Source: Acidimicrobiales bacterium (GTDB lineage Bacteria; Actinomycetota; Acidimicrobiia; Acidimicrobiales; RAAP-2). Taken from it: a DNA stretch of 43,835 bases. The position numbers and the translations under genes are program-made. Positions 19 through 23,170 of this stretch are shown one piece after another; the first letter of the stretch is position 1, and each line of letters starts with the position of its first letter. The stretch covers positions 1 through 43,835 of the forward strand of contig DATNLP010000413.1 of NCBI GenBank assembly GCA_035602795.1, written 5' to 3'. The notes beneath the pieces were generated by a model. The model did no database searches, was not told the origin of the DNA, and saw only the letters and a list, made by a program, of their open reading frames with translations.

Positions 19-459
19 GTGCTGTGGCGGCCCGAAGACCTCCTCCGGTGGGCACTCACGGTGGGGATCGGCGGCATCGTCGTGGCGGTGTCGTGGTACG
101 TCTGCGCCGGCGACGTCTCGTTCAGCCAGCAGATCGGGCCGGCCGACGCCGCCGTCGCCGGACTTCTGCTGGCCGGCATCGGCAACGTCGGCTGGTTGTT
201 GCGCGGCCGCCGCATCCTCGGCGAGCGCCGGCGCGCCCTCCTGCCCGACGTCCCCGCCCGCGTCGCCGTGGGGACGGTCCGTCCGGTCGGCGTGCACCAC
301 GAGGAGGAGGCCGGGGCGCTCTACGTGGCGGGTGACGGCATGGAGCGGTTCCACCGTCCCGACTGCCTGCTTGCGTCGGGGCGTCACGATTGGACGGCGA
401 AGACCCGGACCGAGCACGAGGTGGCCGGTCGCCGACCCTGCGGAGTGTGCCGCCCGTGA
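19..459 (+). CDS. Small membrane protein with C-terminal Ada-like Cys zinc-ribbon motif (possibly 5'-incomplete)
   Basis: Two hydrophobic helices (LTVGIGGIVVAVSWYV; AVAGLLLAGIGNVGWLL). C-terminus FHRPDC...AGRRPCGVCRP resembles the Ada N-terminal metal-binding motif (YxRPxC...GxRPCxxCxP). The reading frame stays open to the window edge, so the start may lie upstream. Confidence 0.55.
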   Translation: MLWRPEDLLRWALTVGIGGIVVAVSWYVCAGDVSFSQQIGPADAAVAGLLLAGIGNVGWLLRGRRILGERRRALLPDVPARVAVGTVRPVGVHHEEEAGALYVAGDGMERFHRPDCLLASGRHDWTAKTRTEHEVAGRRPCGVCRP

Positions 460-500
460 GCGCTCTGCCGTCCCTCCTGCTCGGGCGGGAAGCCACGACC

Positions 501-2531: not shown

Positions 2532-3349
2532 CCGAGCGCCTCCCCGACCTCGCCGTCGAGCACCTGACCGTGCGGTTCGGCGGGCTGGTCGCGGTCGACG
2601 ACGTGACCCTGCACGCTCCCGAGGGAACCATCACCGGCCTGATCGGTCCCAACGGGGCGGGCAAGACCACGACGTTCAACGCCTGCGCCGGGGTGGTCCC
2701 GGCCGCCGGGAAGATCCGGCTCGGCGGCCAGGACCTGGTTCACCTGTCCACGCCGGGGCGTGCGGCGCACGGGCTCGGAAGGACGTTCCAGCGGATGGAG
2801 TTGTTCGACTCCATGACGGTGGCAGAGAACGTGGCCCTCGGTCCGGAGGCCTTCTTCGCGGCACGACGCCCATGGAGCCAGATCTCCGGAGGCCGCCGCG
2901 AGCGGCGCCAGGTCGCCGAGCGATCGCGGGCGTCAATGGAGTGGTGCGGAATAGAGACGCTGGCGGCGTCGCGCGCGGGCGACCTCTCCACTGGGCAACG
3001 ACGGCTGGTCGAGCTCGCCCGCGCCATGGCGACGCCCTTTCGCTTCCTGCTCCTCGACGAGCCATCCTCGGGTCTCGACGTGCGCGAGACGGAGCGCTTC
3101 GGCGAAATTGTGAGCAGTTTCGTCGAGGAGACGGGCACCGGCATCCTCCTGGTCGAGCACGACATGGCGTTGGTCGCCTCGGTGTGCCGGTACATCTACG
3201 TGCTCGACTTCGGCAACCTGATCTTCAACGGAACGACCTCCGAGGTCCTTTCCTCCGAGGTCGTGCGGGCGGCCTATCTCGGGTCGGACACGCCTCAACT
3301 CGAGGTGTTCACACCCGCCGACGGAGGGGAGCTGGCGCCGAATGCTTGA
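2528..3349 (+). CDS. livG: HAAT ABC transporter ATP-binding protein, LivG type
   Basis: LAVEHLTVRFGGLVAVDDVTL, Walker A GPNGAGKTT, signature LSTGQRRLVELARA, Walker B LLLDEPSSG. ATGA overlap with the permease stop. Confidence 0.93.
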   Translation: MTERLPDLAVEHLTVRFGGLVAVDDVTLHAPEGTITGLIGPNGAGKTTTFNACAGVVPAAGKIRLGGQDLVHLSTPGRAAHGLGRTFQRMELFDSMTVAENVALGPEAFFAARRPWSQISGGRRERRQVAERSRASMEWCGIETLAASRAGDLSTGQRRLVELARAMATPFRFLLLDEPSSGLDVRETERFGEIVSSFVEETGTGILLVEHDMALVASVCRYIYVLDFGNLIFNGTTSEVLSSEVVRAAYLGSDTPQLEVFTPADGGELAPNA

Positions 3350-4040
3350 GCTCCGCCAGGTCTGCGCCGGCTACGGCAGCGGCAAAGTCCTCGAGCGCGT
3401 CGATCTGGTCGTCCCCGACGGTGCGGTGGTGGCCCTTCTCGGCCCCAACGGCGCCGGGAAGACGACGCTGCTCAAAGTGGCCTCGGGGCTGCTCAGACCC
3501 TCGTCGGGCCACGTGGTCTTCGACGGCGCGGACGTGACCGCGGCCACCCCCTACGAGCTGGCCCGCCTCGGCATCTGCCACGTCCCCGAAGGCCGCGGTG
3601 TCTTCCCGACGCTCTCGGTGGCCGACAACCTGAGGCTGCAGGCACCGCCGTCGGTGGATCGTCACGCGGTGGAGAGGGCCGCCTCGGTCTTCCCCAAGCT
3701 CGGGCAGCGCCGGAACCAGCTTGCGGGCACCCTTTCGGGCGGGGAGCAGCAGATGCTGGCTTTGGCCCGGGCGTACGTCGGTACGCCGACGACGGTGCTG
3801 CTCGACGAGGTCTCCATGGGCCTGGCGCCGAAGATCGTCGACGAGATCTTCGAGTACCTGCGCCGCCTGGCGGCGGAGGGCCTCTCCCTGCTCGTCGTCG
3901 AGCAGTACGTGGCCAGGGCGCTCGAGCTGGCGGACTACGTCTACATCCTCAACCGGGGCCGGATCCGCTTCGCCGGCGAGCCGTCGGAGGTCAAGGACGA
4001 GACCGTGCTCGAGTCGTATCTCGGGGCGCTGGCATCGTGA
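3342..4040 (+). CDS. livF: HAAT ABC transporter ATP-binding protein, LivF type
   Basis: MLELRQVCAGYGSGKVL, Walker A GPNGAGKTT, signature LSGGEQQMLALARA, Walker B LLDEVSMGL. 8-nt overlap with livG. Confidence 0.93.
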   Translation: MLELRQVCAGYGSGKVLERVDLVVPDGAVVALLGPNGAGKTTLLKVASGLLRPSSGHVVFDGADVTAATPYELARLGICHVPEGRGVFPTLSVADNLRLQAPPSVDRHAVERAASVFPKLGQRRNQLAGTLSGGEQQMLALARAYVGTPTTVLLDEVSMGLAPKIVDEIFEYLRRLAAEGLSLLVVEQYVARALELADYVYILNRGRIRFAGEPSEVKDETVLESYLGALAS

Positions 4041-7790: not shown

Positions 7791-9089
7791 TCAGTTCGTC
7801 TTCGCTACGGAAGTTCCCGGCACCAAGGTCTGGGTCTTGGCGTCGTAGTGATAGATCGTAACCGGGCCGATCGCGTAGGGCTGGCCTGGTGCGAAGGAGA
7901 GGGGGCCGCCTGCCCCGGGGATGCTGGCGTTCTTCAGATCGTAGCCAGCCTTGGTGAAGCTGGCCACGGTCAGGTTCTTACCCGCCGCGTCGGCGATCTT
8001 GACGAAGAGGCCGAGGTACTGGCAGGCCTCGATCACCGACTCGTACGTGGTGTCATTGGTCACCACCGTCGTCTCGGGGTTGGGCGGATTCGAGACCTGG
8101 TCCGACGGGTAGGCCTTTCGGACCTCCGCGGCGCACTTCTGAATGGCCGGGTCCTTCCACTGCTGGTAGGCGGTCGGGGTCGAAGTGGCGGCCAGCGAGT
8201 AGTCCAGGTACGGGTTGCCACCCTTGGTCGACTCGACGTACGAGATGTAGGAGGACTCGCTGGTGGCGATGTACAAGGGCTTGTACTGACTCTGCAGATC
8301 CGCCTGCGCCCGGGGCCACGTGGTCGAGCCGGAGCCGCCGACACCGAGGACCACGTTGATCCCGTCGTTCTGGAACTTCGTCTCAATGGTCTGGGTGTCC
8401 TGGTCGGAGGCGACGGTGTCGGTGGACGGCGCGTTGTCCAGAGCCGTATCCACGAGGTCCACGTGCAACTTGGCGAGATCGGCCTTGACGGCAGACACTT
8501 CCGGGGCGTCCGAGGTGGCGCCGTAGAAGATGCCGACCTTCTTGCCGTTGAATACGCCCAGCTTCTTGAACGCTGCCAGCTGCACGGCGTCGAACGGCGC
8601 GTCGGGCGGGACGATGGCGAAGTCGGGAGCTGAACCGGCCGGCAACGTGCCAGGTAGGGATCCCGCGATCACCGGCGTGTCGTGCGTCGTCTGGTAGCAG
8701 TCCGGGAACACCGGAGAGATGGAGACGAAGACGTGGTCGTCCTCGGTCAGCTGGGTGCAGGAGTTGGCCGCATCCGCCGGCAACGCCGGGTCCATACCCA
8801 CGTTGGCCAGGACCAGCTTGCGCCCGTCGACGCCACCCGCCTTGTTGATACCGGCGATGACGGCGTTGTAGGCATCGACGAAGTTGCCGTCGTTGATGTT
8901 GACGCCGAGGTTCTTGAGCTCGGTAAAATTGACCCAGGGCAGGCCGACAGTGATCGTTGTCTTGGTCACGCCCTGGTCGGCCGGGCTCGTGGCCGCACCG
9001 GCGGGGGCGACCCCGGCGGACACGATCGTGCCTCCCAGAGTGGCGAGGGCTGCGGCCGTCCACAGCACGTTCCGGACGCGCAATTTCAT
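7791..9089 (-). CDS. Secreted ABC transporter substrate-binding protein, type-I (Leu/Ile/Val-binding-like) fold
   Basis: ATG at 9089 gives MKLRVRNVLWTAAALATLGGTIVSAGVAPAGA (signal peptide). ITVGLPW...AGGVDGRKL...VFVSISP is typical of the LivJ/K-type family. It is a paralogue of the decayed gene at 28551..29712. Confidence 0.85.
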   Translation of the reverse strand: MKLRVRNVLWTAAALATLGGTIVSAGVAPAGAATSPADQGVTKTTITVGLPWVNFTELKNLGVNINDGNFVDAYNAVIAGINKAGGVDGRKLVLANVGMDPALPADAANSCTQLTEDDHVFVSISPVFPDCYQTTHDTPVIAGSLPGTLPAGSAPDFAIVPPDAPFDAVQLAAFKKLGVFNGKKVGIFYGATSDAPEVSAVKADLAKLHVDLVDTALDNAPSTDTVASDQDTQTIETKFQNDGINVVLGVGGSGSTTWPRAQADLQSQYKPLYIATSESSYISYVESTKGGNPYLDYSLAATSTPTAYQQWKDPAIQKCAAEVRKAYPSDQVSNPPNPETTVVTNDTTYESVIEACQYLGLFVKIADAAGKNLTVASFTKAGYDLKNASIPGAGGPLSFAPGQPYAIGPVTIYHYDAKTQTLVPGTSVAKTN

Positions 9090-9320: not shown

Positions 9321-9338
9321 TAACCTGACATTTGTTCC
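9321..9338 (-). promoter_or_regulatory. Box A: TAACCTGACATTTGTTCC (minus strand reads GGAACAAATGTCAGGTTA), candidate operator
   Basis: Exact reverse complement of the 18-mer at 13217..13234. Lies in the 282-bp divergent region between the binding-protein gene and the tandem TetR gene, 34 nt upstream of the TetR ATG. Confidence 0.6.
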
Positions 9339-9371
9339 CAACAAAACGGTGCCTGGCTACGATGACGCGGG

Positions 9372-10616
9372 ATGCCGTCCGAAGGAGCCCGCCGGGAAGA
9401 GATACTTCAGACAGCGGGCACGCTCTTCGCATCCTCGGGCTTGCGGACCTCCCTCAACGAGATCGCCGACGCCTGCGGCATCCTCCCGGGCAGCCTCTAC
9501 CACCACTTCGAATCCAAAGAAGCGATCATCGTCGAGTTGGTGCAGCGCTACGAGGACGACCTCACGCGCATCGCCAAGGAAGCGCGCGACACCCTGCACG
9601 AGCCGACGCCCCGGTCGCTTGAAGCACGGGTGATCGAGTTCGGCCGCGCCATCGCCGCCGTCGGCCTCGAGCACCGGGCCGCACTCCTCCTCACGCTGTA
9701 CGAGCCGCCGGTGGGGGCGGGCCAGGAGTCCGGCCATGCCCTCAAGTCACCCCCGGCGATCCACCAAGCCATGCAGGAGATTCTGCAAGCCGGTCTCGCC
9801 AACGGCGACGTGCGGTCGGGGATCGATCTCTCTTTGCTCTCCGATCGAATGTGCCTCAGCATGCTGCACGTCGGCGTCGGCATCTCCCATCTCACGCCTG
9901 GGGGTGACGTCGTCCCGGACACGAGGATCCGCATCCTGCTGGACGGGCTGGCGGCCAAGCCTCCATCGAACGCCGCGCTCGACCGCTCGACCGCACTCAA
10001 GGCGGCCCAAGCTGCCATCGTCTCCTGGGGCGAAGAAGGTGCGGACGACGACGAGCGCCTCGTGCACCTGCGCGCGGTAGCGCGCACTGAGTTCGGACGG
10101 CGCGGGTACGAAGCGACCACCATGCGAGACATCGCGTCGGCCTCCGGCTTCAGCACCGGCACGGTCTATCGGTTGCTCGGCTCTAAGGACCAGTTGCTGA
10201 TCTCCGTCATGTCGTCGTACGTCGACAAGGTCAGCCGCGCATGGGATGCGGTCGTCCGCTCTGATTCGACGCCGCTCACCAAGATCGACGCATTGATGTG
10301 GGTCACCATCAACGTGCTCGACACCCTCAGCGAGGAGTTCAAGATCACGCTGGCCTGGCTGCGCCAGTCCCCGCCGAGCAGCGCCCCGGCGCTCGGGATG
10401 TCCTTCCCCGAACAATTGCGCCACGTCCGCACGCTTCTCACCACGGGGACGCGCGACGGAGTGATTCAGTTGGAAGGCGCGTCCGCCGAAATCAGGGCCC
10501 GCTGCGTCCTCGAAGCGATCTGGGGTGCCGGTTCCCACGTCACGGAACTCTCGCCAAAGGAATCTCACGCATTGGCCCGCGACACCGTGCTGCGCGGGGC
10601 GGCCACCCACGCTTGA
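9372..10616 (+). CDS. Tandem-duplicated TetR/AcrR family regulator (two HTH-plus-ligand modules in one 414-aa chain)
   Basis: HTH 1: REEILQTAGTLFASSGLRTSLNEIADACGILPGSLYHHFESKEAII. HTH 2 starts near residue 225: LRAVARTEFGRRGYEATTMRDIASASGFSTGTVYRLLGSKDQLL. The protein is about twice the normal TetR length. Confidence 0.85.
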   Translation: MPSEGARREEILQTAGTLFASSGLRTSLNEIADACGILPGSLYHHFESKEAIIVELVQRYEDDLTRIAKEARDTLHEPTPRSLEARVIEFGRAIAAVGLEHRAALLLTLYEPPVGAGQESGHALKSPPAIHQAMQEILQAGLANGDVRSGIDLSLLSDRMCLSMLHVGVGISHLTPGGDVVPDTRIRILLDGLAAKPPSNAALDRSTALKAAQAAIVSWGEEGADDDERLVHLRAVARTEFGRRGYEATTMRDIASASGFSTGTVYRLLGSKDQLLISVMSSYVDKVSRAWDAVVRSDSTPLTKIDALMWVTINVLDTLSEEFKITLAWLRQSPPSSAPALGMSFPEQLRHVRTLLTTGTRDGVIQLEGASAEIRARCVLEAIWGAGSHVTELSPKESHALARDTVLRGAATHA

Positions 10617-10653
10617 GCCCGAGCCCGCGCCCATCCAAGAAGGGTCCCACCGG

Positions 10654-12384
10654 GTGAGTGAGCCGAAGACACCCGGTCCGGAACGGCTGAAGCTGTTGGC
10701 CTCCGCCGTCGCGGGCCGACCGGTCACCGTGGCCGCTCTCCACCCACCCGGAACGGCTGCCTGGACGGATGGGACGACCGTCTTCGTCGATCCCGCGGCG
10801 GCGACGCGCGAGCAGGTCCGATACGTCGCAGTCCAGGCCGCACTCCTGTCCTCGGGCAGCCTCGACGCCGAATTCCTGAGCGCAATAGCACGTCGGCCGG
10901 CCCTCTGCCGGAGGTACCTGGCTGTGGAAGGTCACCGGGCCCTGGCCGCTCACCAGGACCTGCTCCCCCCGAGCGCACGGCTCTTGATCGATCGCCGGAT
11001 GGCAGCCCGCAGCGGGTCGCCGGCCCAATCCCTCGCCATCGCCATGAGCCGCGAGGTGGTTGCGGATGCTCCACACTCCTTCGGCACGATTCGACCCCGC
11101 CGGTTGCGCTCGGACTTGGGCAAGTCGGCGGAGACCAACGCAGCCGCCCAACACGTCCCGAGACAGACCGACGCCCATCTCCTACGAGAGCTCGACGACG
11201 AGGAGGACGATGGTGGCGCTCTCTTCGACACCGTCTCGAGCCCGGTCGGCGGGGGCGGCGGCATCGGCCGGCTCATCAAGAGGCTGATCGGCGACGCGCG
11301 CTCGGGCGATGGTGGTCCGCCCGGGGCGGACGCCGTCACGCATAGGTCTCGCCGTGGTGGCGGTCGGCCGGCCGCCGGCACCATGACGACAGCCATCACC
11401 TCCATCACGGACTCAATGGAGGACGCGGCCCATCGGGAATGGACCTACCCCGAGTGGGATCTGCACCGGCACCGCTACCGCCAGGACTGGTGCACGGTCA
11501 GCGAATCCGAGCCGGCGGCGGCCAAGCTCGCTCCGTTCGAACTCGCCGACACGCACTCGCTGCGCCGAGCACTGGCCCGGTTGGGCCGGGAGTGGCAACG
11601 GCGTCCGCGACAGCTACAGGGCATCGACATCGACATCGACGCCGCCGTGGCAGCGTACGTCGATGTGGTCGCAGGATCGCCTCCAGCTGAGGAGGTTTAC
11701 ATTGACATCCTGCGGCAGCGCCGCGATCTCGCCGTGCTGATCCTGCTCGACATCTCAGGGTCGGCTGGGGAGCCGAGCCCGTCGGGCGGCATGGTGCACG
11801 ACCATCAGCGGGCCGCCGCGGCGGCGCTCGTCCGGTCGATGCACGATCTGGGTGACCGCGTGGCCCTCTATTCCTTCTGCTCCCAGGGACGGACAGCGGT
11901 GCACGTGGTGCCGATGAAGCAGTTCCGCGAAAGCCTCGAGACCAGGGTGCTGCAGCGACTTGGCGGCACCTCTCCCGGGGCATATACCCGGCTCGGCGCG
12001 GCCATCCGCCATGGGTCGGCGGTGGTCGAGCGCGACGGCGGCACGACGAGGCGATTACTCGTCGTCCTATCGGACGGGTTCGCCTACGACCACGGCTACG
12101 AGGGCGCCTACGGAGAGGCCGACGCGCGGCGCGCGCTGGCGGAAGCCCGAAGAAGGGGAACGGCGTGCCTCTGCTTGAGCATGGGCGCTCCGACCGATAC
12201 GGAGGCGCTACGGAGGGTTTTCGGAACGGCCGCGCACGCCCGCGTTCCGCGGGTCGAGGACTTGCCGGCGATGGTCGGTCCACTGTTCGGGTTCGCCCTC
12301 AGGTCGGCGGAAGCCCAGCAGCGGACGTTCCAGCGCAAACTCCGGACAAAGGAGCGTCTCGAGGTCGAAAGGAGGACGGCATGA
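10654..12384 (+). CDS. vWA-domain protein, NorD/CbbO-like partner of a MoxR-class ATPase
   Basis: C-terminal vWA domain with MIDAS DxSxS (LILLDISGSAGE) and LLVVLSDG. Long helical N-terminal region. GTG at 10654 follows AAGAAGGG. ATGA overlap with the downstream AAA+ gene. Confidence 0.8.
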   Translation: MSEPKTPGPERLKLLASAVAGRPVTVAALHPPGTAAWTDGTTVFVDPAAATREQVRYVAVQAALLSSGSLDAEFLSAIARRPALCRRYLAVEGHRALAAHQDLLPPSARLLIDRRMAARSGSPAQSLAIAMSREVVADAPHSFGTIRPRRLRSDLGKSAETNAAAQHVPRQTDAHLLRELDDEEDDGGALFDTVSSPVGGGGGIGRLIKRLIGDARSGDGGPPGADAVTHRSRRGGGRPAAGTMTTAITSITDSMEDAAHREWTYPEWDLHRHRYRQDWCTVSESEPAAAKLAPFELADTHSLRRALARLGREWQRRPRQLQGIDIDIDAAVAAYVDVVAGSPPAEEVYIDILRQRRDLAVLILLDISGSAGEPSPSGGMVHDHQRAAAAALVRSMHDLGDRVALYSFCSQGRTAVHVVPMKQFRESLETRVLQRLGGTSPGAYTRLGAAIRHGSAVVERDGGTTRRLLVVLSDGFAYDHGYEGAYGEADARRALAEARRRGTACLCLSMGAPTDTEALRRVFGTAAHARVPRVEDLPAMVGPLFGFALRSAEAQQRTFQRKLRTKERLEVERRTA

Positions 12385-13190
12385 CTTCTGGACCCCGGCC
12401 CTACTACGTCCCGGTCGGAGATGAGGAGGCCGTCTTTGCGGCCGCGTTCCGCCAAAGCCTGTCGATCCTCCTGAAAGGGCCCACGGGCTGTGGCAAGACG
12501 CGTTTCGTCGAAGCCATGGCGTACGACCTGCAGCGTCCGCTCATCACAGTCGCCTGCCACGACGACTTGACGACGGCGGATCTGGTGGGCCGCTTCCTTC
12601 TGCGGGGCGGCGAGACCACCTGGGTCGACGGACCACTGACGCGAGCGGTCCGGGAGGGCGCCATCTGCTACCTCGACGAAATCGTCGAGGCGCGCCAGGA
12701 CACGACCGTGGTCCTCCATCCACTGACGGACCACCGCCGCCAGATGCCGATCGATCGCCTCGGCGTCACACTCGAGGCCGCACCGGGTTTCTGCCTCGTC
12801 GTGTCCTACAACCCGGGCTACCAGAGCGTCCTCAAGGATCTGAAGGACTCGACCCGACAGCGCATGATCGCCATCGAGCTCGATTTTCCGCCAGCCGACG
12901 TCGAGGAGAAGGTCGTGGCGCACGAGGCCGGCGTGGACCACCAGACGGCGTCACTCCTGGTGGGGCTCGGGCGGGCCATCCGGCGTCTCGAGAACGTCGG
13001 ACTGCGTGAGGTGGCCTCGACCCGACTGCTGGTTGCCGCGGGCCGGTTGGTCCAACAGGGCCTGGGCCTCCCTACGGCGGCGCGGGCGGCGGTCGCCGGG
13101 CCGCTCACGGACGATCCTGTGGTGACGGCGGGACTGATTCAGATGATCGACGCCTACTGCGAGGACCAACCCGCCGGGCCGGACGATTGA
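12381..13190 (+). CDS. AAA+ ATPase of the CbbQ/NirQ/NorQ/GvpN (MoxR) family
   Basis: SILLKGPTGCGKTRFVEAMA (Walker A), AICYLDEIVEA (Walker B), LVVSYNPGYQ, about 269 aa. This is the typical size and motif order for the family. Confidence 0.9.
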   Translation: MTSGPRPYYVPVGDEEAVFAAAFRQSLSILLKGPTGCGKTRFVEAMAYDLQRPLITVACHDDLTTADLVGRFLLRGGETTWVDGPLTRAVREGAICYLDEIVEARQDTTVVLHPLTDHRRQMPIDRLGVTLEAAPGFCLVVSYNPGYQSVLKDLKDSTRQRMIAIELDFPPADVEEKVVAHEAGVDHQTASLLVGLGRAIRRLENVGLREVASTRLLVAAGRLVQQGLGLPTAARAAVAGPLTDDPVVTAGLIQMIDAYCEDQPAGPDD

Positions 13191-13216
13191 CGCTGGTGGG
13201 CCTGGTCGCTAAGGTC

Positions 13217-13234
13217 GGAACAAATGTCAGGTTA
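13217..13234 (+). promoter_or_regulatory. Box B: GGAACAAATGTCAGGTTA, candidate operator
   Basis: Identical 18-mer to box A (opposite orientation). Lies 20 nt upstream of the GTG at 13254, in the 63-nt gap after the MoxR gene. Confidence 0.6.
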
Positions 13235-13253
13235 GCGCCGGGGCTGCGGGGCC

Positions 13254-14390
13254 GTGGTTGCTCGACAAGGGGGGCGCGTGTCCTACGTCAGTACCGCCGA
13301 ACCGATCAAGATCGGGTACCTGTTCGACTTCAAGCTCCCTGAGGGCTATCCCCAGGAGTCTCGCGACGACCTGGTGCTCCCCTTCGAGCTCGTCTTCAAG
13401 CAGGGCCTCGAGCAAGGGGTTCTCGACCGCCCGGTGGAGATCGTGTTCCGCGAGGTCGAAGGCCTACCCAAGGGCACCATAAAAGCCGTGATCGATGCCT
13501 ACGGCGAGCTGGTCGACGAGGGTTGCCTCGTCGTCTTCGGCCCGGCCATCACCGACAACTGCGTGCCGACCCGCGAGGCGATCGAGGAGCGCTTTCGCGT
13601 GCCGGCCATCAGCGTGACGGGCAGCGAGGAGTGGCTGGGCGAGTGGACGTTCGCCCTGTCCATGGGCTCGATGACCGACGAGCCCATCTTCTGGGCCGAC
13701 CTGCTCGTCAAGGACGGCCACCGCGAGGTCGGGCTCCTGATCGAGCGGTCACTGGTCGGTGACTCCTACGTGCGCAACTTCCGCAAGGCGTGTGCCGACC
13801 GCGACATACGGATCGTGGCGGAGGAATGGGTCCCCCAGACGGCTCAGGACATCAGCACGTCCGTGCGCAACCTGCACGAGGCCAAAGCCGAGGCGATTGT
13901 GCATTGCGGCTTCGGTTTCGGCATCGTCTTCGTCAACCCGACGCTGGCGGAAATGAACTGGAATCCTCCTCGATACATGGGCACGGCGTTCCAGAACGCC
14001 TGGATCAACCAACTGATGTGGGATGCCATCCGGGGCTACACGGGGCTGGACCAGTACGACGAGTCGAACCCGGTCGGGCAGGCCTTCCTCGACGAGTACA
14101 ACGTGGCCTATGGGCGTCGGCCGGAGTACTGCGTTCCCGTGGTCAACCGCGACATCGCGACCATTTTGCTGCTCGCCCTGGCGGACGCACATCCCCTCAC
14201 TCCGCGTGGGGTGAAGGAGGCCCTCGAGCGGGTGAAGATGGTCCCCGCCGCCTCCGGTGCTCCTGGGACCCGGCTTTCCTTCGGTAGGTGGACGCGCCGA
14301 GGCTGGATGGGCGCCGGCTATCTCGTGGCGCGCCAGCTGGATGAGGAGTTCGGCTCGTCGCACCTCGTCGGCCGCTTCGGGCAAGTCTGA
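13254..14390 (+). CDS. Type-I periplasmic-binding-protein-fold protein without a signal peptide (predicted cytoplasmic ligand-binding protein)
   Basis: IKIGYLFD...VVFGPAITDN...VGLLIERSLVGDSY...IVHCGFGFG follows the LivK/AmiC-type fold pattern. The N-terminus MVARQGGRVSYVSTAEP has no hydrophobic leader or lipobox. Confidence 0.8.
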   Translation: MVARQGGRVSYVSTAEPIKIGYLFDFKLPEGYPQESRDDLVLPFELVFKQGLEQGVLDRPVEIVFREVEGLPKGTIKAVIDAYGELVDEGCLVVFGPAITDNCVPTREAIEERFRVPAISVTGSEEWLGEWTFALSMGSMTDEPIFWADLLVKDGHREVGLLIERSLVGDSYVRNFRKACADRDIRIVAEEWVPQTAQDISTSVRNLHEAKAEAIVHCGFGFGIVFVNPTLAEMNWNPPRYMGTAFQNAWINQLMWDAIRGYTGLDQYDESNPVGQAFLDEYNVAYGRRPEYCVPVVNRDIATILLLALADAHPLTPRGVKEALERVKMVPAASGAPGTRLSFGRWTRRGWMGAGYLVARQLDEEFGSSHLVGRFGQV

Positions 14391-14393
14391 GCG

Positions 14394-15545
14394 GTGACGA
14401 CCCAGCTGGAGCGAGCGGAACAAGTCACTACCGACGAACCCTCTGCCGCGACGACGGCAACGAAGTCGACCCGCTCGGGCATCGCCTGGGGCTTGATCGG
14501 CTGCGCGGTGGCCCTGCTGCTCATCTTCATCGCGCACAATGCCCGCCGTGGCGCCGTCGTCGCACGCATCAAGAACGCTGCCGTGCAGGGCGCACCACGT
14601 CCGGTCAGGCCATTGTTCGGCTGGACCCACTGGTTGGGGTTCCTCCAGGTCAGCACGATCATCTCCATGGCGGTGATCGTGGTGGTCTTCGTCGTGCTGT
14701 GGCGGCGGCACCCGAAGCACCCGGTCTTGCTCATGGCGATCGCGTGCACCACGCTCGTCTGGCAGGACCCGATCATGAACTGGTCCCCGTACGCGGTGTA
14801 CAACCCGCAGCTATGGCACTGGCCCGAGTCCTGGCCGCTTGTCTCGCTCTCGCCGACGGTCGAACCCTTCGTCGTGATCGGCTACGTGATGTTCTACCTG
14901 GTCCCCGGATTGATCGGCATCTGGGCCCTCCAGCGCATCCAGCAGCGAAAGCCAGTCACGTCCTTTGTCTGGCGTCATCCGCTCGTCACCCTGGCCCTCC
15001 TGATCTACCCGATCGGATTCATTTACGACGCCATCCAGGAGATCATCCTCATCCGGACCGGCATGTACACCTACTCGCAGGTGATCCCGTTCGGGTCCGT
15101 CTTCGTCGGCAAGCAGTACCAGTTCCCCCTCATTTGGGAGTCGTCACTCGTGACCGCCGTCATGATCCCCGCCGGCGTGCTCCTCTACCGCGACGACACC
15201 GGCAAGACCGTGGCGGAGAAACTGGCCCAACGGGTGCGGTCGTTCCGCGGGCGTCCGGCGCTCGGCACCTTCGTCGTCATGGCCCTGATCCTCAACGCTT
15301 GCTACTTCTTCCTGTACGGCGGCGGGTTCGCCATCATCAAGGACACCGGCGTGGCCACCTCAGTCGCCTGCCCGTGGCCCTACCCCGAAGCGAAGGTCTA
15401 TGACCCACAGGGCTTCTACGAGAAAGCGGGAGCAACCGGGCCGTACTCCGTGGGAATCTGGAGCGGCTGGGAGATGGCGCAATCAGGTCGTCCGGACATC
15501 AGCCCGCCCGTTGGCGGAGGCCCCTGCAGCACGGCACACGGCTGA
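14394..15545 (+). CDS. Polytopic (about 7 TM) Trp-rich integral membrane protein, unknown function
   Basis: Hydrophobic segments include GIAWGLIGCAVALLLIFIA, ISMAVIVVVFVVLW, FVVIGYVMFYLVPGLIGIWAL and FVVMALILNACYFFLYGGGF. Starts 3 nt after the preceding stop. I have a weak recollection of resemblance to proteins annotated as AveC family, which I cannot verify here. Confidence 0.7.
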   Translation: MTTQLERAEQVTTDEPSAATTATKSTRSGIAWGLIGCAVALLLIFIAHNARRGAVVARIKNAAVQGAPRPVRPLFGWTHWLGFLQVSTIISMAVIVVVFVVLWRRHPKHPVLLMAIACTTLVWQDPIMNWSPYAVYNPQLWHWPESWPLVSLSPTVEPFVVIGYVMFYLVPGLIGIWALQRIQQRKPVTSFVWRHPLVTLALLIYPIGFIYDAIQEIILIRTGMYTYSQVIPFGSVFVGKQYQFPLIWESSLVTAVMIPAGVLLYRDDTGKTVAEKLAQRVRSFRGRPALGTFVVMALILNACYFFLYGGGFAIIKDTGVATSVACPWPYPEAKVYDPQGFYEKAGATGPYSVGIWSGWEMAQSGRPDISPPVGGGPCSTAHG

Positions 15546-15558
15546 CCTCGCCAGACGT

Positions 15559-16329
15559 TCAGGGATTCAGCTGACCGCTCGGGCGCACCACGATCTCGTG
15601 GATGCAGATCCCGTCCGGCCGGCTCATGACGAACGTGATGCAGTCGGCCAACTCTTCGGGTGCGGCCGGCACGCCCCCCTCGACGAAGAACGGGGTGTCG
15701 GTCGGTGGGATGTCGCCGTCCATGATGAGTCCCTCCATGGTGAGACCCTCGGTGTCGAACATCCCGGGCATGACGAGACTGACGTTGATGCCCTGGGGTG
15801 CCAGTTCGATGCGCAACGTATCGAAGGCCGCCTCTAGACCGCGCTTCGAGGCGGCGTAGATGCCGACGCCGGACATGGGCGTCAAGGCACCGGTCGATCC
15901 CACCAGGATGACGTCGCGCCGGCCCGCGCTCGAGAAGTGGGGCAAGGCGTAGCGGACCGTCGCCAGCGGACCGAGCAGGTTCAGTTCGATGAGCTCACGC
16001 CATCGCTGCGGGGTCCCGGTCGCCACCGTCCCGGTCATCATCGCCCCCGCCACCGAGACGACACCGTCGAGGTCGCCGAGCTGGCGAGCGGCGTCGGTGA
16101 CCCTCTCGTCCAGCGTCTCGAGGTCGGTCACGTCGCAGGCCACCCAGACGGCACGGTCCCCGAGTTCCTCGGCCAGCGCGCCGAGGCGCTCCTTCCGCCG
16201 GGCCAGCATGGCGACCGATCCGCCCTGGGCGACGATCGACCGGCAGGTGGCCGCCCCGATCCCACTCGATGCGCCAGTCACGAGGACGCGCCGGCCGCTC
16301 AGGTCAACGAGCACGCTCATGAACAACAC
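15559..16329 (-). CDS. Short-chain dehydrogenase/reductase (SDR)
   Basis: VLVTGASSGIGAAT (TGxxxGxG), NLLG, and YAASK (catalytic YxxxK). An alternative ATG start lies at 16320. Confidence 0.9.
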   Translation of the reverse strand: MLFMSVLVDLSGRRVLVTGASSGIGAATCRSIVAQGGSVAMLARRKERLGALAEELGDRAVWVACDVTDLETLDERVTDAARQLGDLDGVVSVAGAMMTGTVATGTPQRWRELIELNLLGPLATVRYALPHFSSAGRRDVILVGSTGALTPMSGVGIYAASKRGLEAAFDTLRIELAPQGINVSLVMPGMFDTEGLTMEGLIMDGDIPPTDTPFFVEGGVPAAPEELADCITFVMSRPDGICIHEIVVRPSGQLNP

Positions 16330-16434
16330 CCCTTTCTGACCTCCCCCTCGGGGACGGCGACGTTAGTTGCTCCGCCCCGACGGGCCACCGGGCGCAGGTT
16401 GACGGGACCGCAAAACCCCCAGTACCTTCCGTGT

Positions 16435-16451
16435 GAACAAATATTAGGTTA
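16435..16451 (+). promoter_or_regulatory. Box C: GAACAAATATTAGGTTA, candidate operator (2 mismatches to boxes A/B)
   Basis: Lies 14 nt upstream of the P450 GTG, in the divergent SDR/P450 intergenic region. The flank TCGCCGG also resembles the box B flank GCGCCGG. It contains a TANNNT-type hexamer, TAGGTT. Confidence 0.5.
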
Positions 16452-16464
16452 TCGCCGGAAGGTC

Positions 16465-17724
16465 GTGAAATTGGCAGGCAAAGGTCCAGACACAGGAGCC
16501 GCGGTCGACCTCGAAGGCGCCGACGCCGACAACGACGAGTTCGGCCTGTTCGACGACGCCGTGGCGGGCGACGCCCGGGATCCCTACCCCGAGCTGGCCC
16601 AGGCTCGTCGCGATACCCCGATCCAGATCCTGGACGCCTCGTTGATGCCACACGACGACGCGCATCCGGTCTACTTCATCTACCGCCACGACGACATCGC
16701 CGCCATTCTCCGAGACGGCGAGACCTTCTCCTCGGCCCACATCATCGACCTGATCATGGGACCGGTCATGGGCGAGCACATCATGCTGGGCATGGACGAC
16801 CCGCAGCACCGCCGCTACCGGGCACTGGTGACCACTGCGTTCCGCCAGAAGGTGCTCGCCACGTGGGAGACCGATCTGGTCGCCAAGGTGGTCAATGACC
16901 TCATCGACCGATTCGTCGATCGCGGTCACGCCGAGTTGGTCCGCGAGTTCACGTTCCCGTACCCGACCCAGATCATCGCCGGCCTCCTCGGCCTGCCGCG
17001 GCAGGACTACAAGCGGTTCCAACGCTGGTCCATCGCCATTCTCAGCTTCCTCAGCAAGCCGGAGGAAGCGATCGCCGCGTCGCAGGAAGTGAAGGAGTAC
17101 ATCGCCGACATCCTGGAGGAACGGCGCCAGACGCCTGCCCAGGACCTGATCAGTGACCTAGCCCGGGCCGAACTGGACGGCGAGCACCTGAGCGACGAGG
17201 AGATCTTCTCGTTCCTCCGGCTTCTGCTGCCTGCCGGGGTCGAGACCACGTTTCGCGCCACGGGGAACCTGCTCTTCTCGCTGCTCTCCCATCCGGACCA
17301 GCTCGACGCCGTCCGGGCCGACCGCCGCCTCATCCCGCAAGCGATTGAGGAGGCGCTCCGCCTCGAGACGCCGCTGCTCAACATCACCCGCTTGGCCACC
17401 AAGGACACGGAGATCGACGGCGTGTCAATTGAGGCCGGCTCGACCGTGATGCTCATGCTGGCAGCGGCCAACCGGGACGAGAACCGCCACGACGACCCCG
17501 ACGCCTTCGACATCTTCCGGAGCGATCCGAAGCCGCATATCTCCTTCGGACATGGGCCCCACATGTGTCTCGGCGTGCACCTGGCCCGGATCGAGATGCG
17601 GGTCGCCCTTGATCACTTGCTCGACCGCCTCCCCAACCTGCGCCTCGACCCGGCTGCGGTCGATCCGCACATCCGGGGCCAGGTGTTCCGGTCCCCCACC
17701 GACCTGCCGGTCCTCTTCGGATGA
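16465..17724 (+). CDS. Cytochrome P450
   Basis: ExxR (EEALRLETP) and heme-thiolate loop FGHGPHMCLGVHLAR. GTG at 16465 follows GGAAGG. The 5' part of the long ORF 15937..17724 is antisense to the SDR gene and was trimmed. Confidence 0.92.
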   Translation: MKLAGKGPDTGAAVDLEGADADNDEFGLFDDAVAGDARDPYPELAQARRDTPIQILDASLMPHDDAHPVYFIYRHDDIAAILRDGETFSSAHIIDLIMGPVMGEHIMLGMDDPQHRRYRALVTTAFRQKVLATWETDLVAKVVNDLIDRFVDRGHAELVREFTFPYPTQIIAGLLGLPRQDYKRFQRWSIAILSFLSKPEEAIAASQEVKEYIADILEERRQTPAQDLISDLARAELDGEHLSDEEIFSFLRLLLPAGVETTFRATGNLLFSLLSHPDQLDAVRADRRLIPQAIEEALRLETPLLNITRLATKDTEIDGVSIEAGSTVMLMLAAANRDENRHDDPDAFDIFRSDPKPHISFGHGPHMCLGVHLARIEMRVALDHLLDRLPNLRLDPAAVDPHIRGQVFRSPTDLPVLFG

Positions 17725-17762
17725 CAGCCAGATCCGTATGACCCTGAGAAACGGAGCGGACC

Positions 17763-19049
17763 ATGCACATTGACGACCTCATCCTCGTCTCCGTCGACGA
17801 CCACGTCGTCGAACCGAAAGACATGTTCGAGGGTCACATCCCGGCCAAGTACAAGGACCAGGCGCCGAAAGTGATCGTCAAGGACGACGGCACCGACGCC
17901 TGGGTGTTCGAAGGGCAGGAGGCCACCAACGTCGGGCTGAACGCCGTGGCAGGCCGGCCCCCCGACGAGTACGGCATCGAACCGACCCGATTTCGCGAGA
18001 TGCGGCCCGGCTGCCACGACATACACGAGCGCATCCGCGACATGAACGCGAACGGCGTGCTCGCCTCGCTGAACTTCCCGTCCTACCCGCAGTTCTGCGG
18101 CCAGTACTTCGCCCGGGCGACCGACAAGGACCTGGCCATCGCCGTGCTGCGCGCCTACAACGACTGGCACGTGGACACATGGTGCGGGACCTACCCGGGA
18201 CGTATGATCCCCCTCGCGCTCCCGCCGATCTGGGACGTTGAGCTGATGGCGGACGAGGTGCACCGCGTGGCGAAGAAGGGCTGCCACGCCGTCACCTTCT
18301 CGGAGAACCCCGAGAAACTCGGCTACCCCTCCTTGCACAATGAGCACTGGGACCCGTTCTGGACCGCATGCAGCGAGGAGAACACCGTCGTCTGCCTGCA
18401 CATCGGGTCGTCGTCGCAGGTTGTGGTGACGTCGATCGAGGCACCAATCGACACGCTGATCACTTTGCAGCCGATCAACATCGTCCAGGCGGCGGCCGAT
18501 CTGCTGTGGTCGCCGGTGCTACGGAAATTCCCCGACATCACGTTCGCGCTCAGCGAGGGAGGAATCGGATGGATCCCCTACTTCCTCGAGCGGGTGGACA
18601 ACGTCTATAAGCACCACCGGGCCTGGACCCACCAGAACTTCGGTGACAAGTTGCCGAGCGAGGTCTTCTCGGAGCGGATCGTAACCTGCTTCATCGACGA
18701 CGCCTTCGGGATTGAGGTCCGGGACAAGCTCAACGTCGACATGATCACCTGGGAGTGCGACTACCCCCACTCCGACTCTGTCTGGCCCGAGTCGCCGGAA
18801 GTGCTGGCCGAGTATCTCGTCGGCGTGCCGACCGAGGAGGTGGCGAAGATCACGCACGAAAACGCTCTGCGAGTCTTCTCCTTCGACGCGTTCGCACATG
18901 TGCCGAAGAGCGTGGCCACCGTCGGCGCCCTGCGGGCCCAGGCTACCGACGTCGACCTGGGCTACCGCTCCTCGGCCCGTCTCAAGAAGACGGGCACCGA
19001 CACCGTCAGCGTGCTCAGCCTGGCCAGCACCTTGTCGCCGGCCAGCTGA
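17763..19049 (+). CDS. Amidohydrolase-2 (ACMSD-like, metal-dependent TIM-barrel hydrolase/decarboxylase) family protein
   Basis: LILVSVDDHVVEP start motif, FSENP, and WECDYPHSD near the C-terminal metal-site region. About 428 aa, typical of the actinobacterial family. Confidence 0.85.
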   Translation: MHIDDLILVSVDDHVVEPKDMFEGHIPAKYKDQAPKVIVKDDGTDAWVFEGQEATNVGLNAVAGRPPDEYGIEPTRFREMRPGCHDIHERIRDMNANGVLASLNFPSYPQFCGQYFARATDKDLAIAVLRAYNDWHVDTWCGTYPGRMIPLALPPIWDVELMADEVHRVAKKGCHAVTFSENPEKLGYPSLHNEHWDPFWTACSEENTVVCLHIGSSSQVVVTSIEAPIDTLITLQPINIVQAAADLLWSPVLRKFPDITFALSEGGIGWIPYFLERVDNVYKHHRAWTHQNFGDKLPSEVFSERIVTCFIDDAFGIEVRDKLNVDMITWECDYPHSDSVWPESPEVLAEYLVGVPTEEVAKITHENALRVFSFDAFAHVPKSVATVGALRAQATDVDLGYRSSARLKKTGTDTVSVLSLASTLSPAS

Positions 19050-19081
19050 CCCGGCCGCGGACCGCTGAGCAAGGCCGCACT

Positions 19082-20005
19082 GTGATCGACTTCGACGAGC
19101 AGGTGGTCATCGTGACCGGAGCCGGTCGTGGGCTCGGGCGCCTGTACGCCCTGGACCTCGCCGCACGGGGTGCCTCGGTCGTGGTCAACGATCTCGGAGG
19201 GACCATGCACGGCCACGGGGCCGACGACAGCATTGCCGACAAAGTGGTCAAGGAGATCGAGGTGGCGGGCGGTGTTGCCGTAGCCTCCCATGACTCGGTG
19301 GCCACGCCCGAGGGTGGCGACGCCATTGTGCAGAGTGCGCTGAAAACGTACGGCCGACTCGATGCCGTGGTGAGCAATGCCGGGATCTTCCATACCGCGC
19401 CCTTCGACGAACTCGAAGTGGATGACTGGCGCCGAATGTTGAACGTCCACGTCGACGGCGGCTTCTTCCTCAGCCAGCCGGCCTACCGGGTAATGAAGGC
19501 GCAGGGCTATGGCCGCTTCGTCTTCATCGCCTCCTCGGCCGGGCTCTTCGGGCAGCCCAACTCGGCTCACTACGCCGCCGCCAAGGCCGCCCTCTTGGGA
19601 TTGACCAACGTGATCGCCATCGAGGGTGCGGAGCACGGGATCCTGGCCAACACGATGCTGCCGTTCGGCTACTCGCGCATGGTAACCGAGACGATCGGCG
19701 AGCTCCCCGAGGACTCCGAGTTCCTGCATGCCATCGATCCGCAATGGGTCGTGCCCATCGTCACCTACCTCTCCAGCAAGGCCTGCGACGTCAGCCATCA
19801 CAACTACTCGGCCTGCGCCGGCCGCTTCGCCCGCGTCTTCGTGGGCCTGGCCGAGGGCTGGCTGGCTGAGCGTGGCAAGCCGCCGACCGCTGAAGATGTT
19901 GCCGCCCACCTCGCCGAGGTCACGGCGACCGAGCCGTTCACCATCCCGGGCTCCATCTTCGACGAGGTCGCGGGGATCGTTTCCCGGCTGGGCCTGACCA
20001 GCTGA
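19082..20005 (+). CDS. SDR family oxidoreductase (hydroxyacyl-CoA / hydroxysteroid dehydrogenase-like)
   Basis: VVIVTGAGRGLGRLYALDLAARGASVVVNDLGG, NAGI, and YAAAK catalytic motif. GTG at 19082 chosen inside the longer ORF. Confidence 0.88.
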   Translation: MIDFDEQVVIVTGAGRGLGRLYALDLAARGASVVVNDLGGTMHGHGADDSIADKVVKEIEVAGGVAVASHDSVATPEGGDAIVQSALKTYGRLDAVVSNAGIFHTAPFDELEVDDWRRMLNVHVDGGFFLSQPAYRVMKAQGYGRFVFIASSAGLFGQPNSAHYAAAKAALLGLTNVIAIEGAEHGILANTMLPFGYSRMVTETIGELPEDSEFLHAIDPQWVVPIVTYLSSKACDVSHHNYSACAGRFARVFVGLAEGWLAERGKPPTAEDVAAHLAEVTATEPFTIPGSIFDEVAGIVSRLGLTS

Positions 20006-22439: not shown

Positions 22440-22508
22440 GTGCCTCCGATCACGCCCGCGCCGGGCTGCTGCCGCAAATGCTGTGCGACTGCTTAGCACG
22501 CTGCGGTA

Positions 22509-22528
22509 TGCTGTGCAATCGCACAGCA
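22509..22528. promoter_or_regulatory. Inverted repeat TGCTGTGC-AATC-GCACAGCA, candidate TetR operator
   Basis: 8-bp perfect arms with a 4-bp spacer. Lies 16 nt upstream of the TetR ATG (22544) and 70 nt upstream of the divergent P450 start. The left arm ATGCTGTGC is also repeated directly at 22478..22486. Confidence 0.6.
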
Positions 22529-22543
22529 GCTGGAACTGACCCC

Positions 22544-23170
22544 ATGACATCGACCCGCCGCATCGGAACCGAGACTTCGGCCACCCGTACCGCCCTCCTC
22601 GATGCCGCCCAGCAGGTCTTGCTCGAGGAGGGCTACGCCGCGGCCACCTCCCGCCGGGTGGCGGCGCGGGCCGGCCTCAAGCCCCAACTCGTCCACTACT
22701 ACTTCCGCACGATGGACGATCTCTTCCTGGCGCTCGTCCGGCGGGGGGCGGAGCAGAACCTCGAGCGCCAGGCCGAAGCGCTGGCCTCGCCGTGCCCGCT
22801 ACGGGCGCTGTGGGAGCTCAGCAACGACCCGGCCGCCAGCGCGCTGACAATCGAATTCGCGGCGCTGGCCAATCACCGCAAGGCCATCCGGGCGGAGCTG
22901 GCGTCCTATGGCGAGCAGTTCCGCCGACTGCAAACTGAGGCGCTCAATCGGATCTTCGAGCGCTACGGCATCGACTCCCGCGCCTACCCGCCCGAGGTGA
23001 TGATCGTCACCATGACCAGCCTGTCGCAGGTGATGGGCATGGAACAGCTCCTGGGCATGACGGCGGGCCACGACGCGACCCGCCAGCTCGTCGAAGGGTT
23101 GCTCGCTCGCTATGAGCATGACTCAGCCGGTTCTGCCCTCACCTTGCCCGGAGGGTCACCCCCCGACTAA
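22544..23170 (+). CDS. TetR/AcrR family transcriptional regulator
   Basis: TRTALLDAAQQVLLEEGYAAATSRRVAARAGLKPQLVHYYFRTMDDLF (HTH). About 208 aa. Divergent from the P450-SDR-ferredoxin operon. Confidence 0.88.
   Translation: MTSTRRIGTETSATRTALLDAAQQVLLEEGYAAATSRRVAARAGLKPQLVHYYFRTMDDLFLALVRRGAEQNLERQAEALASPCPLRALWELSNDPAASALTIEFAALANHRKAIRAELASYGEQFRRLQTEALNRIFERYGIDSRAYPPEVMIVTMTSLSQVMGMEQLLGMTAGHDATRQLVEGLLARYEHDSAGSALTLPGGSPPD

Follow-up and report, generated by a model that had tools for sequence, protein, structure and literature searches.

The closest described system to the one considered here is Mce3R (Rv1963c) of Mycobacterium tuberculosis, a repressor made of two TetR-family regulator (TFR) units in a single chain, whose structure has been obtained by cryo-electron microscopy (9b7y). 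Experiments have shown that a single Mce3R chain, folded as a pseudo-dimer, binds a non-palindromic operator, at 25-bp non-palindromic sites that are paired 53 bp apart; this operator is long, and no short consensus is reported for it (PMC11667970). Double-TetR regulators are a large group in actinobacteria, of which about 200 were predicted in 2013 (PMC3711444), and in our literature search on the motif strings of the box described below or on other characterised double TFRs only the Mce3R work was found. Here we report on the metagenome contig DATNLP010000413.1 (ENA ERZ27256038) of an Acidimicrobiales bacterium, analysed as one stretch of 43,835 nucleotides (hereafter the window), in which a short box is found in three promoter regions, one of them belonging to a gene that encodes a double-TetR protein of 414 aa. 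Judging from the sequence, we consider it likely that this box is the operator of the double TetR encoded beside it, acting in ligand-relieved repression of the target genes and in autorepression of the regulator. The boxes would thereby mark a conserved, previously uncharacterised regulon in Acidimicrobiia and mycobacteria.

The sequence GGAACAAATGTCAGGTTA is present twice in the window, at 13217-13234 on the + strand (box B) and, as its exact reverse complement, at 9321-9338 (box A, - strand), and TGAACAAATATTAGGTTA is present once, at 16434-16451 on the + strand (box C). Box A, the candidate autoregulatory operator, lies in the divergent region between a secreted solute-binding protein (SBP) gene and the double-TetR gene, 34 nt 5' of the ATG of the latter (9372) and on the opposite strand; its distance to the SBP gene is 232 nt from the signal-peptide start (9089) and 157 nt from the start of the longest open reading frame (ORF; 9164). 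A gene for a cytoplasmic protein resembling periplasmic binding proteins (PBP-like) begins with the GTG at 13254, 19 nt beyond the end of box B, and box C ends 13 nt before the GTG (16465) of a P450 gene, from which an SDR gene diverges. The 17-mer core of box C is matched to that of boxes A and B at 15 of 17 positions, with the differences confined to core positions 9 and 11; of these two, the first varies among the family sites and the second is occupied by T or C.

A previous reading of the window, made from sequence only, had listed these three copies, placed all of them between genes and considered their recurrence unlikely by chance. The coordinates and sequences proved correct, the three boxes are intergenic under Pfam-supported gene calls, and none of 100 dinucleotide-preserving shuffles of the window held three matches (mean 0.01). 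When the window was scored with a position-weight matrix built from independent loci, box A reached 28.6 bits, box B 28.4 and box C 34.7, the last being the best match to the family matrix, and the next site of the 44 kb scored about 11 bits, which is the level of the shuffles. No further box stood above noise in the 44-kb window, either in scans allowing four mismatches or in the matrix scan, and this includes the surroundings of a second P450 gene and a single-domain TetR gene at 21-23 kb.

Alignment of ±60 nt around the three boxes revealed no similarity beyond the box edges. Since these flanks cannot be aligned, the boxes are regarded as a discrete element and not as a piece of a longer repeat or mobile element. 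The CGCCGG 3' flank that had been proposed as common to boxes B and C did not hold, the information of the family matrix being about zero beyond position 18, and the same lack of conservation applies to a CCCGnCGGGC block about 50 nt upstream, which near box A falls within the TetR coding sequence; both were taken as chance in GC-rich DNA. The box could be thought to recur by chance or as the remnant of a small mobile repeat, as it is AT-rich and hence conspicuous in a window of about 66% GC, and a few isolated high-GC matches (L001, L012, L017 and L100; L-numbers are labels of comparison loci from other genomes or metagenomes) have unrelated neighbours and are possibly fortuitous. This explanation is effectively refuted by the shuffles, by the unrelated flanks and by the fact that different classes of Actinomycetota keep the box at orthologous positions.

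The link between the box and the tandem-TetR gene, which had been suggested from the window, was examined in 80 metagenome loci (682 kb) chosen solely for a homologue of the 414-aa double TetR (45-69% identity). With a site defined by at most 3 mismatches to 15 fixed positions, these loci contain 102 sites where about 1.2 are expected (6 in five shuffled replicates), and at least one site is present in 48 of the 80. The box is therefore about 85-fold enriched around double-TetR homologues that were picked without reference to it. Moreover, 87 of the 102 sites (85%) are intergenic, although predicted coding sequence makes up about 81% of the DNA, so that the intergenic enrichment proposed as a check was indeed found. 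A box of at least 12 bits occurs within 250 nt upstream of the regulator gene in 49 of the 77 loci that have enough sequence there, against about 0.1 expected. In the closest relatives (L121, L122, L123, L134, L172, L125 and L136) it lies, like box A, on the strand opposite to the regulator gene and 21-53 nt ahead of its start. Going by its position, a site before the regulator's own gene fits autoregulation. The 54 ORFs lying directly downstream of boxes belong mostly to the families Peripla_BP_6 (12), P450 (10), VWA (9), DAP_DH_C (4), aldehyde dehydrogenase (3), TetR (3) and luciferase-like monooxygenase (2). The same families are thus linked to boxes across the family, and this matches what a regulon predicts. 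The putative regulatory unit joining TetR2-vWA-MoxR, the PBP-like/7-TM pair and P450-amidohydrolase-SDR, as first proposed, is supported by conservation, enrichment and downstream families alike.

The consensus of the family matrix is gGAACArATrTTwGGTya, with practically no information outside positions 0-18. The box can be described as a heterotypic inverted repeat of 16-17 bp, GAACArAT|ATTwGGTy, with AAC and ACC as half-sites. Its symmetry centre falls between positions 8 and 9, which gives the halves GAACArAT and, on the other strand, rACCwAAT. The main systematic difference between them is that of position 3 versus position 14, from which AAC in one half and ACC in the other result. The box had been called not a palindrome, and this is right in so far as the two halves differ; the description has to be corrected in that the box is an imperfect inverted repeat, AAC...GGT, with 7 of the 8 half-site positions complementary in the family consensus, which is therefore nearly palindromic. 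With a strand-symmetric seed, used to remove the bias of an asymmetric one, 137 unique sites were obtained against about 4 by chance. Among these 109 are AAC|ACC, 25 are ACC|ACC and 3 are AAC|AAC, whereas 67 mixed sites would be expected with independent halves (p = 1e-13). Because sites with mixed halves are so strongly over-represented, the asymmetry of the box is, as read from these sites, a selected property.

The protein proposed to read this box, encoded at 9372..10616 (+), contains two TetR_N helix-turn-helix (HTH) domains, both recognised by Pfam, in its single chain of 414 aa. Its halves are 31% identical, across the DNA-binding domain only, and the recognition helices differ (PGSLYHHF and TGTVYRLL). 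An AlphaFold2 model made with 40 homologues reached a pLDDT of 86.8 and a pTM of 0.87. Searched with Foldseek against the PDB, its top match was Mce3R (9b7y_A), over the full length (430 columns, TM 0.66/0.70, 17% identity), whereas ordinary TetR-family structures matched one half only (query TM 0.28-0.39). The double TetR is thus predicted from the model to fold as an intramolecular pseudo-dimer, with a four-helix-bundle core formed by one chain. Homologues at E<1e-20 number more than 2,900, and they are named simply 'AcrR/TetR family'.

The protein is a distant and distinct member of the group and not the orthologue of Mce3R. Besides the 17% identity, its phmmer similarity to Mce3R is limited to the N-terminal HTH (E 1.6e-11), the probe A sequence of Mce3R does not contain the box, and no mce genes are present in the window, so that neither orthology nor an Mce3R regulon was retained. 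A common operator was likewise rejected, as GAACAAAT...AGGTTA is missing from probe A. What the two systems have in common is the presence of two TetR_N HTH domains in one polypeptide with a predicted full-length fold match, an operator whose two halves are not equivalent, a site that precedes the regulator's own gene, and targets that are oxidoreductases of lipid or xenobiotic type. Unlike Mce3R, this system has one compact heterotypic inverted repeat of 16-17 bp per promoter and other target genes, with no mce operon.

The comparison can be extended to TetR/tetO, QacR and KstR/KstR2, with which the box shares an operator length of 15-17 bp and a pair of half-sites that two HTHs can occupy in successive major grooves. 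As in classical TetR operators, it overlaps the promoter, and the regulator would be autoregulated and is encoded beside its presumed targets, in line with the genome-context rule (PMC3511530). The operators of TetR/tetO, QacR and KstR/KstR2 are, in contrast, true palindromes for homodimers, whereas here the halves differ systematically, and the box has a fixed polarity relative to the -10 element which a classical TetR homodimer could not impose. Engineered single-chain or tandem TetR fusions (PMC3711444) likewise have two TetR units per chain and can in principle read two half-sites, but they are artificial joins of complete dimerising repressors, while the present proteins form a natural and widespread family with co-evolved operators.

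That polarity became apparent when the surroundings of the boxes were inspected for -10-like hexamers. A TANNNT ending 1-9 nt 5' of the AAC side accompanies 121 of 230 strong boxes, compared with 34 on the other side and about 10 by chance, and with the strand-symmetric seed the corresponding numbers are 60 on the AAC side and 14 on the other (p = 6e-8). As the inner bases of the hexamer vary among orthologous loci while T-A...T is kept, we read it as a -10 element. Box B has TAAGGT (13210..13215, +) 2 nt to its 5' side, and its orthologous loci have TAGCTT, TAGTGT, TATGTT or TAGTTT at the matching position; box C is preceded by TACCTT (16423..16428, +), 6 nt 5', with TACCGT at the equivalent position in orthologous loci. 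The usual spacing from the -10 element to the start in actinobacteria would put the start of transcription inside the box. We therefore infer that transcription starts within boxes B and C, in which case a bound protein would occlude the start site.

The regulator's own promoter seems to be built differently. The putative -10 element TACGAT (9358..9363, +) lies 8 nt before the double-TetR ATG, and in L121, whose regulator is 65% identical, TACCAT (9987-9992) also lies 8 nt before the ATG (10001). Since TACnAT sits at exactly this distance in both the window and L121, a leaderless mRNA is suggested; box A would then span about -34 to -51, over the -35/spacer region. A scan of the box A region for promoters of E. 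coli type gave no match, but such a scan is uninformative for a high-GC actinobacterium.

This geometry bears on two other explanations. The double TetR might bind the box as an activator or dual regulator and not as a simple repressor, as the fixed polarity would suit any orientation-dependent contact with RNA polymerase and a few TetR-family activators do exist (the NCBIfam FasR 'HTH-type transcriptional activator' is a weak match here). We hold this to be improbable, because activators normally bind upstream of the -35 element, whereas the box lies past the -10 element and covers the predicted start, which is the position of a repressor; moreover, Mce3R and the large majority of TetR-family regulators repress (PMC11667970, PMC3511530). 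The tight coupling to the -10 element also places most of the box inside the predicted transcript, and a mycobacterial variant abuts the Shine-Dalgarno sequence of luciferase-like monooxygenase genes. The box could then be a promoter-proximal or 5'-untranslated-region element without a dedicated DNA-binding protein, such as an initially transcribed sequence, an RNA hairpin or a translational operator. But it is built as an inverted repeat with half-site centres about 10 bp apart, as is typical of paired HTH readers, a start inside the box would leave the AAC arm out of the RNA so that no hairpin could form, and at the regulator's own promoter the box precedes the -10 element and is found on the other strand; an element of this kind is very improbable.

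Repression by the double TetR, which we favour, would work as follows. A single chain would form an Mce3R-like intramolecular pseudo-dimer, whose two non-identical HTHs (PGSLYHHF and TGTVYRLL) would read the non-identical AAC and ACC half-sites. At target promoters the AAC side would lie 2-7 nt downstream of the TANNNT -10 hexamer, and RNA polymerase would be blocked because the bound protein covers the start site together with the first ~15 bases of the transcript. At the regulator's own promoter, which is probably leaderless, the box over the -35/spacer would lead to autorepression. A small ligand, probably a substrate or a CoA-thioester intermediate of the P450/SDR/amidohydrolase/PBP-like/AveC-like pathway, would free the protein from the box, and with its release the three transcription units would be switched on together.

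The conservation of the box was followed in other genomes with the exact pattern GAACAAATNTNAGGTTA, one genome being taken per species. At least 120 loci were obtained, most of them from AT-rich genomes in which the pattern is expected by chance; among the matches listed 34 loci are of high GC (>55%), mainly from metagenome-assembled genomes (MAGs) of Acidimicrobiia and from Mycobacterium and Mycolicibacter. Orthologous positions were established by tblastn with the window proteins. An exact-pattern box lies between the MoxR and PBP-like genes in L027, L050, L055, L071, L082 and L116, and L109 has a box with one mismatch in the same place, before the PBP-like gene. The gene order TetR2-VWA-MoxR-box-PBP is retained in L055, L071 and L082, and the SDR<-box->P450 layout in L052, L067, L075 and L109. 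A mismatch-tolerant scan added boxes before double-TetR orthologues (L071, L082), before P450 genes (L050, L082) and beyond the 3' end of the SDR gene (L052, L067, L075, L109). The expectation that the box would be kept at orthologous intergenic positions was thus borne out in other Acidimicrobiia genomes, and the box also occurs in mycobacteria.

In mycobacteria the box is placed between divergent luciferase-like monooxygenase and DAP-dehydrogenase-like/aminotransferase genes. Eight loci from Mycobacterium or uncultured Actinomycetota (L019, L032, L054, L077, L094, L102, L112 and L115) have a common extended flank, CACTATCTTAAn, directly 5' of the box, which holds the -10-like hexamer TATCTT and lies between the luciferase-like monooxygenase gene and the divergent pair of DAP-dehydrogenase-like and aminotransferase genes. 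Orthologues of the double TetR exist in the cultivable Mycobacterium barrassiae and Mycolicibacter sinensis (47-49% identical; loci L073 and L029). In loci of Mycobacterium and other Actinomycetota we also observed a variant box, nnACAAATATTAGGTTG, followed immediately by nCTAGGAG, a Shine-Dalgarno sequence, and a gene start. The variant is found at 2445-2461(-) of L054, 1249-1265(-) of L098, 6338-6354(+) of L115, 2216-2232(+) of L030 and 8264-8280(-) of L199, and where checked (L098) the gene that follows encodes a luciferase-like monooxygenase. An operator abutting the ribosome-binding site could exert roadblock control inside an operon.

Several points weigh against the favoured model of repression by the double TetR. 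Boxes A and B are far less symmetric than the family consensus, with 3-4 complementary pairs of 8 (box C, with 5 of 8, is nearer to it), box A has no -10 element on its AAC side and its geometry is unlike that of boxes B and C, and the TANNNT hexamers are predictions. Many of the sampled loci are related, so the site counts are of non-independent events. The loci were, in addition, selected through the regulator, and a second regulator travelling with the cluster would co-occur just as well. No double-TetR homologue was detected in the eight mycobacterial-type loci with the CACTATCTTAA-extended box (8 kb per locus), and the clusters of L032, L102 and L112 carry a single-domain TetR, together with an AveC-like gene and P450.

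These last points feed the main rival explanation, namely that the box is a genuine operator bound by a different, co-travelling regulator, for example a homodimeric single-domain TetR such as the one encoded in the window itself (22478-23170), which adjoins the second P450 gene, or its mycobacterial counterparts. Such a homodimer predicts homotypic half-sites, whereas 109 of the 137 sites are heterotypic, in 49 of 77 loci the box is found immediately before the double-TetR gene, and there is no box near the single TetR of the window. We consider a co-travelling regulator unlikely, although less so than the activator and the untranslated element discussed above, and we retain the double TetR as the probable reader.

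A farther-reaching proposal would be that the operator is intrinsically directional, the double TetR being bound in one orientation relative to RNA polymerase, and that the regulon represents a widespread uncharacterised actinobacterial pathway. It rests on the AAC half almost always adjoining the -10 element, and we regard it as doubtful. If true, it would mean orientation-specific control beyond the reach of homodimeric TetR repressors, for example if one HTH or domain touched sigma region 2 or kept it out, if the protein formed a directional roadblock, or if same-strand sites differed in outcome from those, like box A, on the opposite strand. The core of the pathway would then comprise the cytoplasmic binding-protein-like protein, the AveC-like membrane protein, VWA/MoxR and the P450/SDR/amidohydrolase enzymes.

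The double-TetR box does not reveal a new regulatory principle; its description as a heterotypic inverted repeat with an apparently fixed polarity beside a -10 element refines what had first been read from the window. What it offers is a short and sharply defined operator with more than 130 natural variants, a heterotypic half-site code and a fixed promoter geometry, on which it becomes testable how two fused and diverged HTHs share the reading of one operator. Moreover, the regulon joins a recurrent unannotated gene set (cytoplasmic PBP-like, AveC-like, VWA/MoxR, P450, SDR and amidohydrolase), to which mycobacteria add luciferase-like monooxygenases and DAP-dehydrogenase-like enzymes, and this set is a starting point from which the inducer and the pathway may be found.

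Other known elements were compared with the box and set aside. The KstR-type operator TnnAACnnGTTnnA is a 14-bp palindrome with its AAC and GTT arms 2 nt apart; our box has 9 nt between its outer triplets, AAC (positions 2-4) and GTT (14-16), and the conserved core of the right half is GGT (13-15). The Cheo box of LexA has the consensus GAAC-N4-GTTC, but 4 nt after GAAC our box has GTCA or ATTA in place of GTTC. One half (TTAGGTTA) of the IdeR/DtxR iron box, whose consensus is TTAGGTTAGSCTAACCTAA, is present, but the second half is absent from the 3' flank. An extracytoplasmic-function (ECF) sigma promoter (GGAAC...GTT) does not fit either, as the spacing in the box is 9 nt and not 16-18 nt. 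A text search of the literature for six variants of the box gave no relevant match.

The gene map given previously for the window was confirmed by Pfam. Divergent from the regulator gene, at 7791..9089 (-), is the secreted SBP gene with the signal peptide MKLRVRNVLWTAAALATLGG..., towards which box A is oriented. Because no TANNNT occurs 5' of box A on its strand, the SBP gene is the weakest member of the regulon, and its control by box A is uncertain. Downstream of the regulator are a VWA gene (10654..12384, +) and a gene for a MoxR/CbbQ-type AAA+ protein (12381..13190, +), which are probably co-transcribed with it. The VWA and MoxR genes overlap by 4 nt (12381-12384), which suggests translational coupling. 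The MoxR-type ATPase has a CbbQ/NirQ/NorQ C-terminal domain, and the VWA/ATPase pair resembles the enzyme-activating chaperones NorQ/NorD or CbbQ/CbbO.

The predicted target operon of box B (13254..15545) consists of the PBP-like gene (13254..14390, +), identified by Pfam as Peripla_BP_6 and without a signal peptide at its N-terminus, and a gene encoding an AveC-like membrane protein (14394..15545, +). That of box C (16465..20005) consists of the P450 gene (16465..17724, +), an Amidohydro_2 gene (17763..19049, +) and a second SDR gene, which ends at 20005 (+). For the regulator and for the VWA, PBP-like, AveC-like and amidohydrolase proteins no NCBIfam curated family was found. The SDR gene divergent from P450 (15559..16329, -) shares with it a control region of 135 bp that contains box C, and is a possible second target of this box. 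In L121 the SDR/P450 divergent region has two boxes, 17009-17025(-) and 17111-17127(+), one per gene, and L123 similarly has one at 8511-8527(-); the SDR gene of the window, with only box C present there, may have lost its own operator or never had one.

In the MAG contigs L050 and L071 the tblastn matches to the MoxR, PBP-like, P450 and amidohydrolase proteins are broken across reading frames, which probably reflects indel errors of the assembly and not real pseudogenes. Further downstream in the window, the second P450 gene (21138-22550, -) diverges from the single-domain TetR gene (22478-23170, +), with an overlap of about 70 nt between their longest ORFs; as there is no box nearby, this pair seems to be a regulatory unit of its own. 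Genes for ABC transporters of the branched-chain-amino-acid type lie on both sides of the box-linked genes, at 23289-26171 (-) and 390-4040 (+), and one of these ORFs, of 960 aa, is a fusion of permease (BPD_transp_2) and ATPase (ABC_tran).

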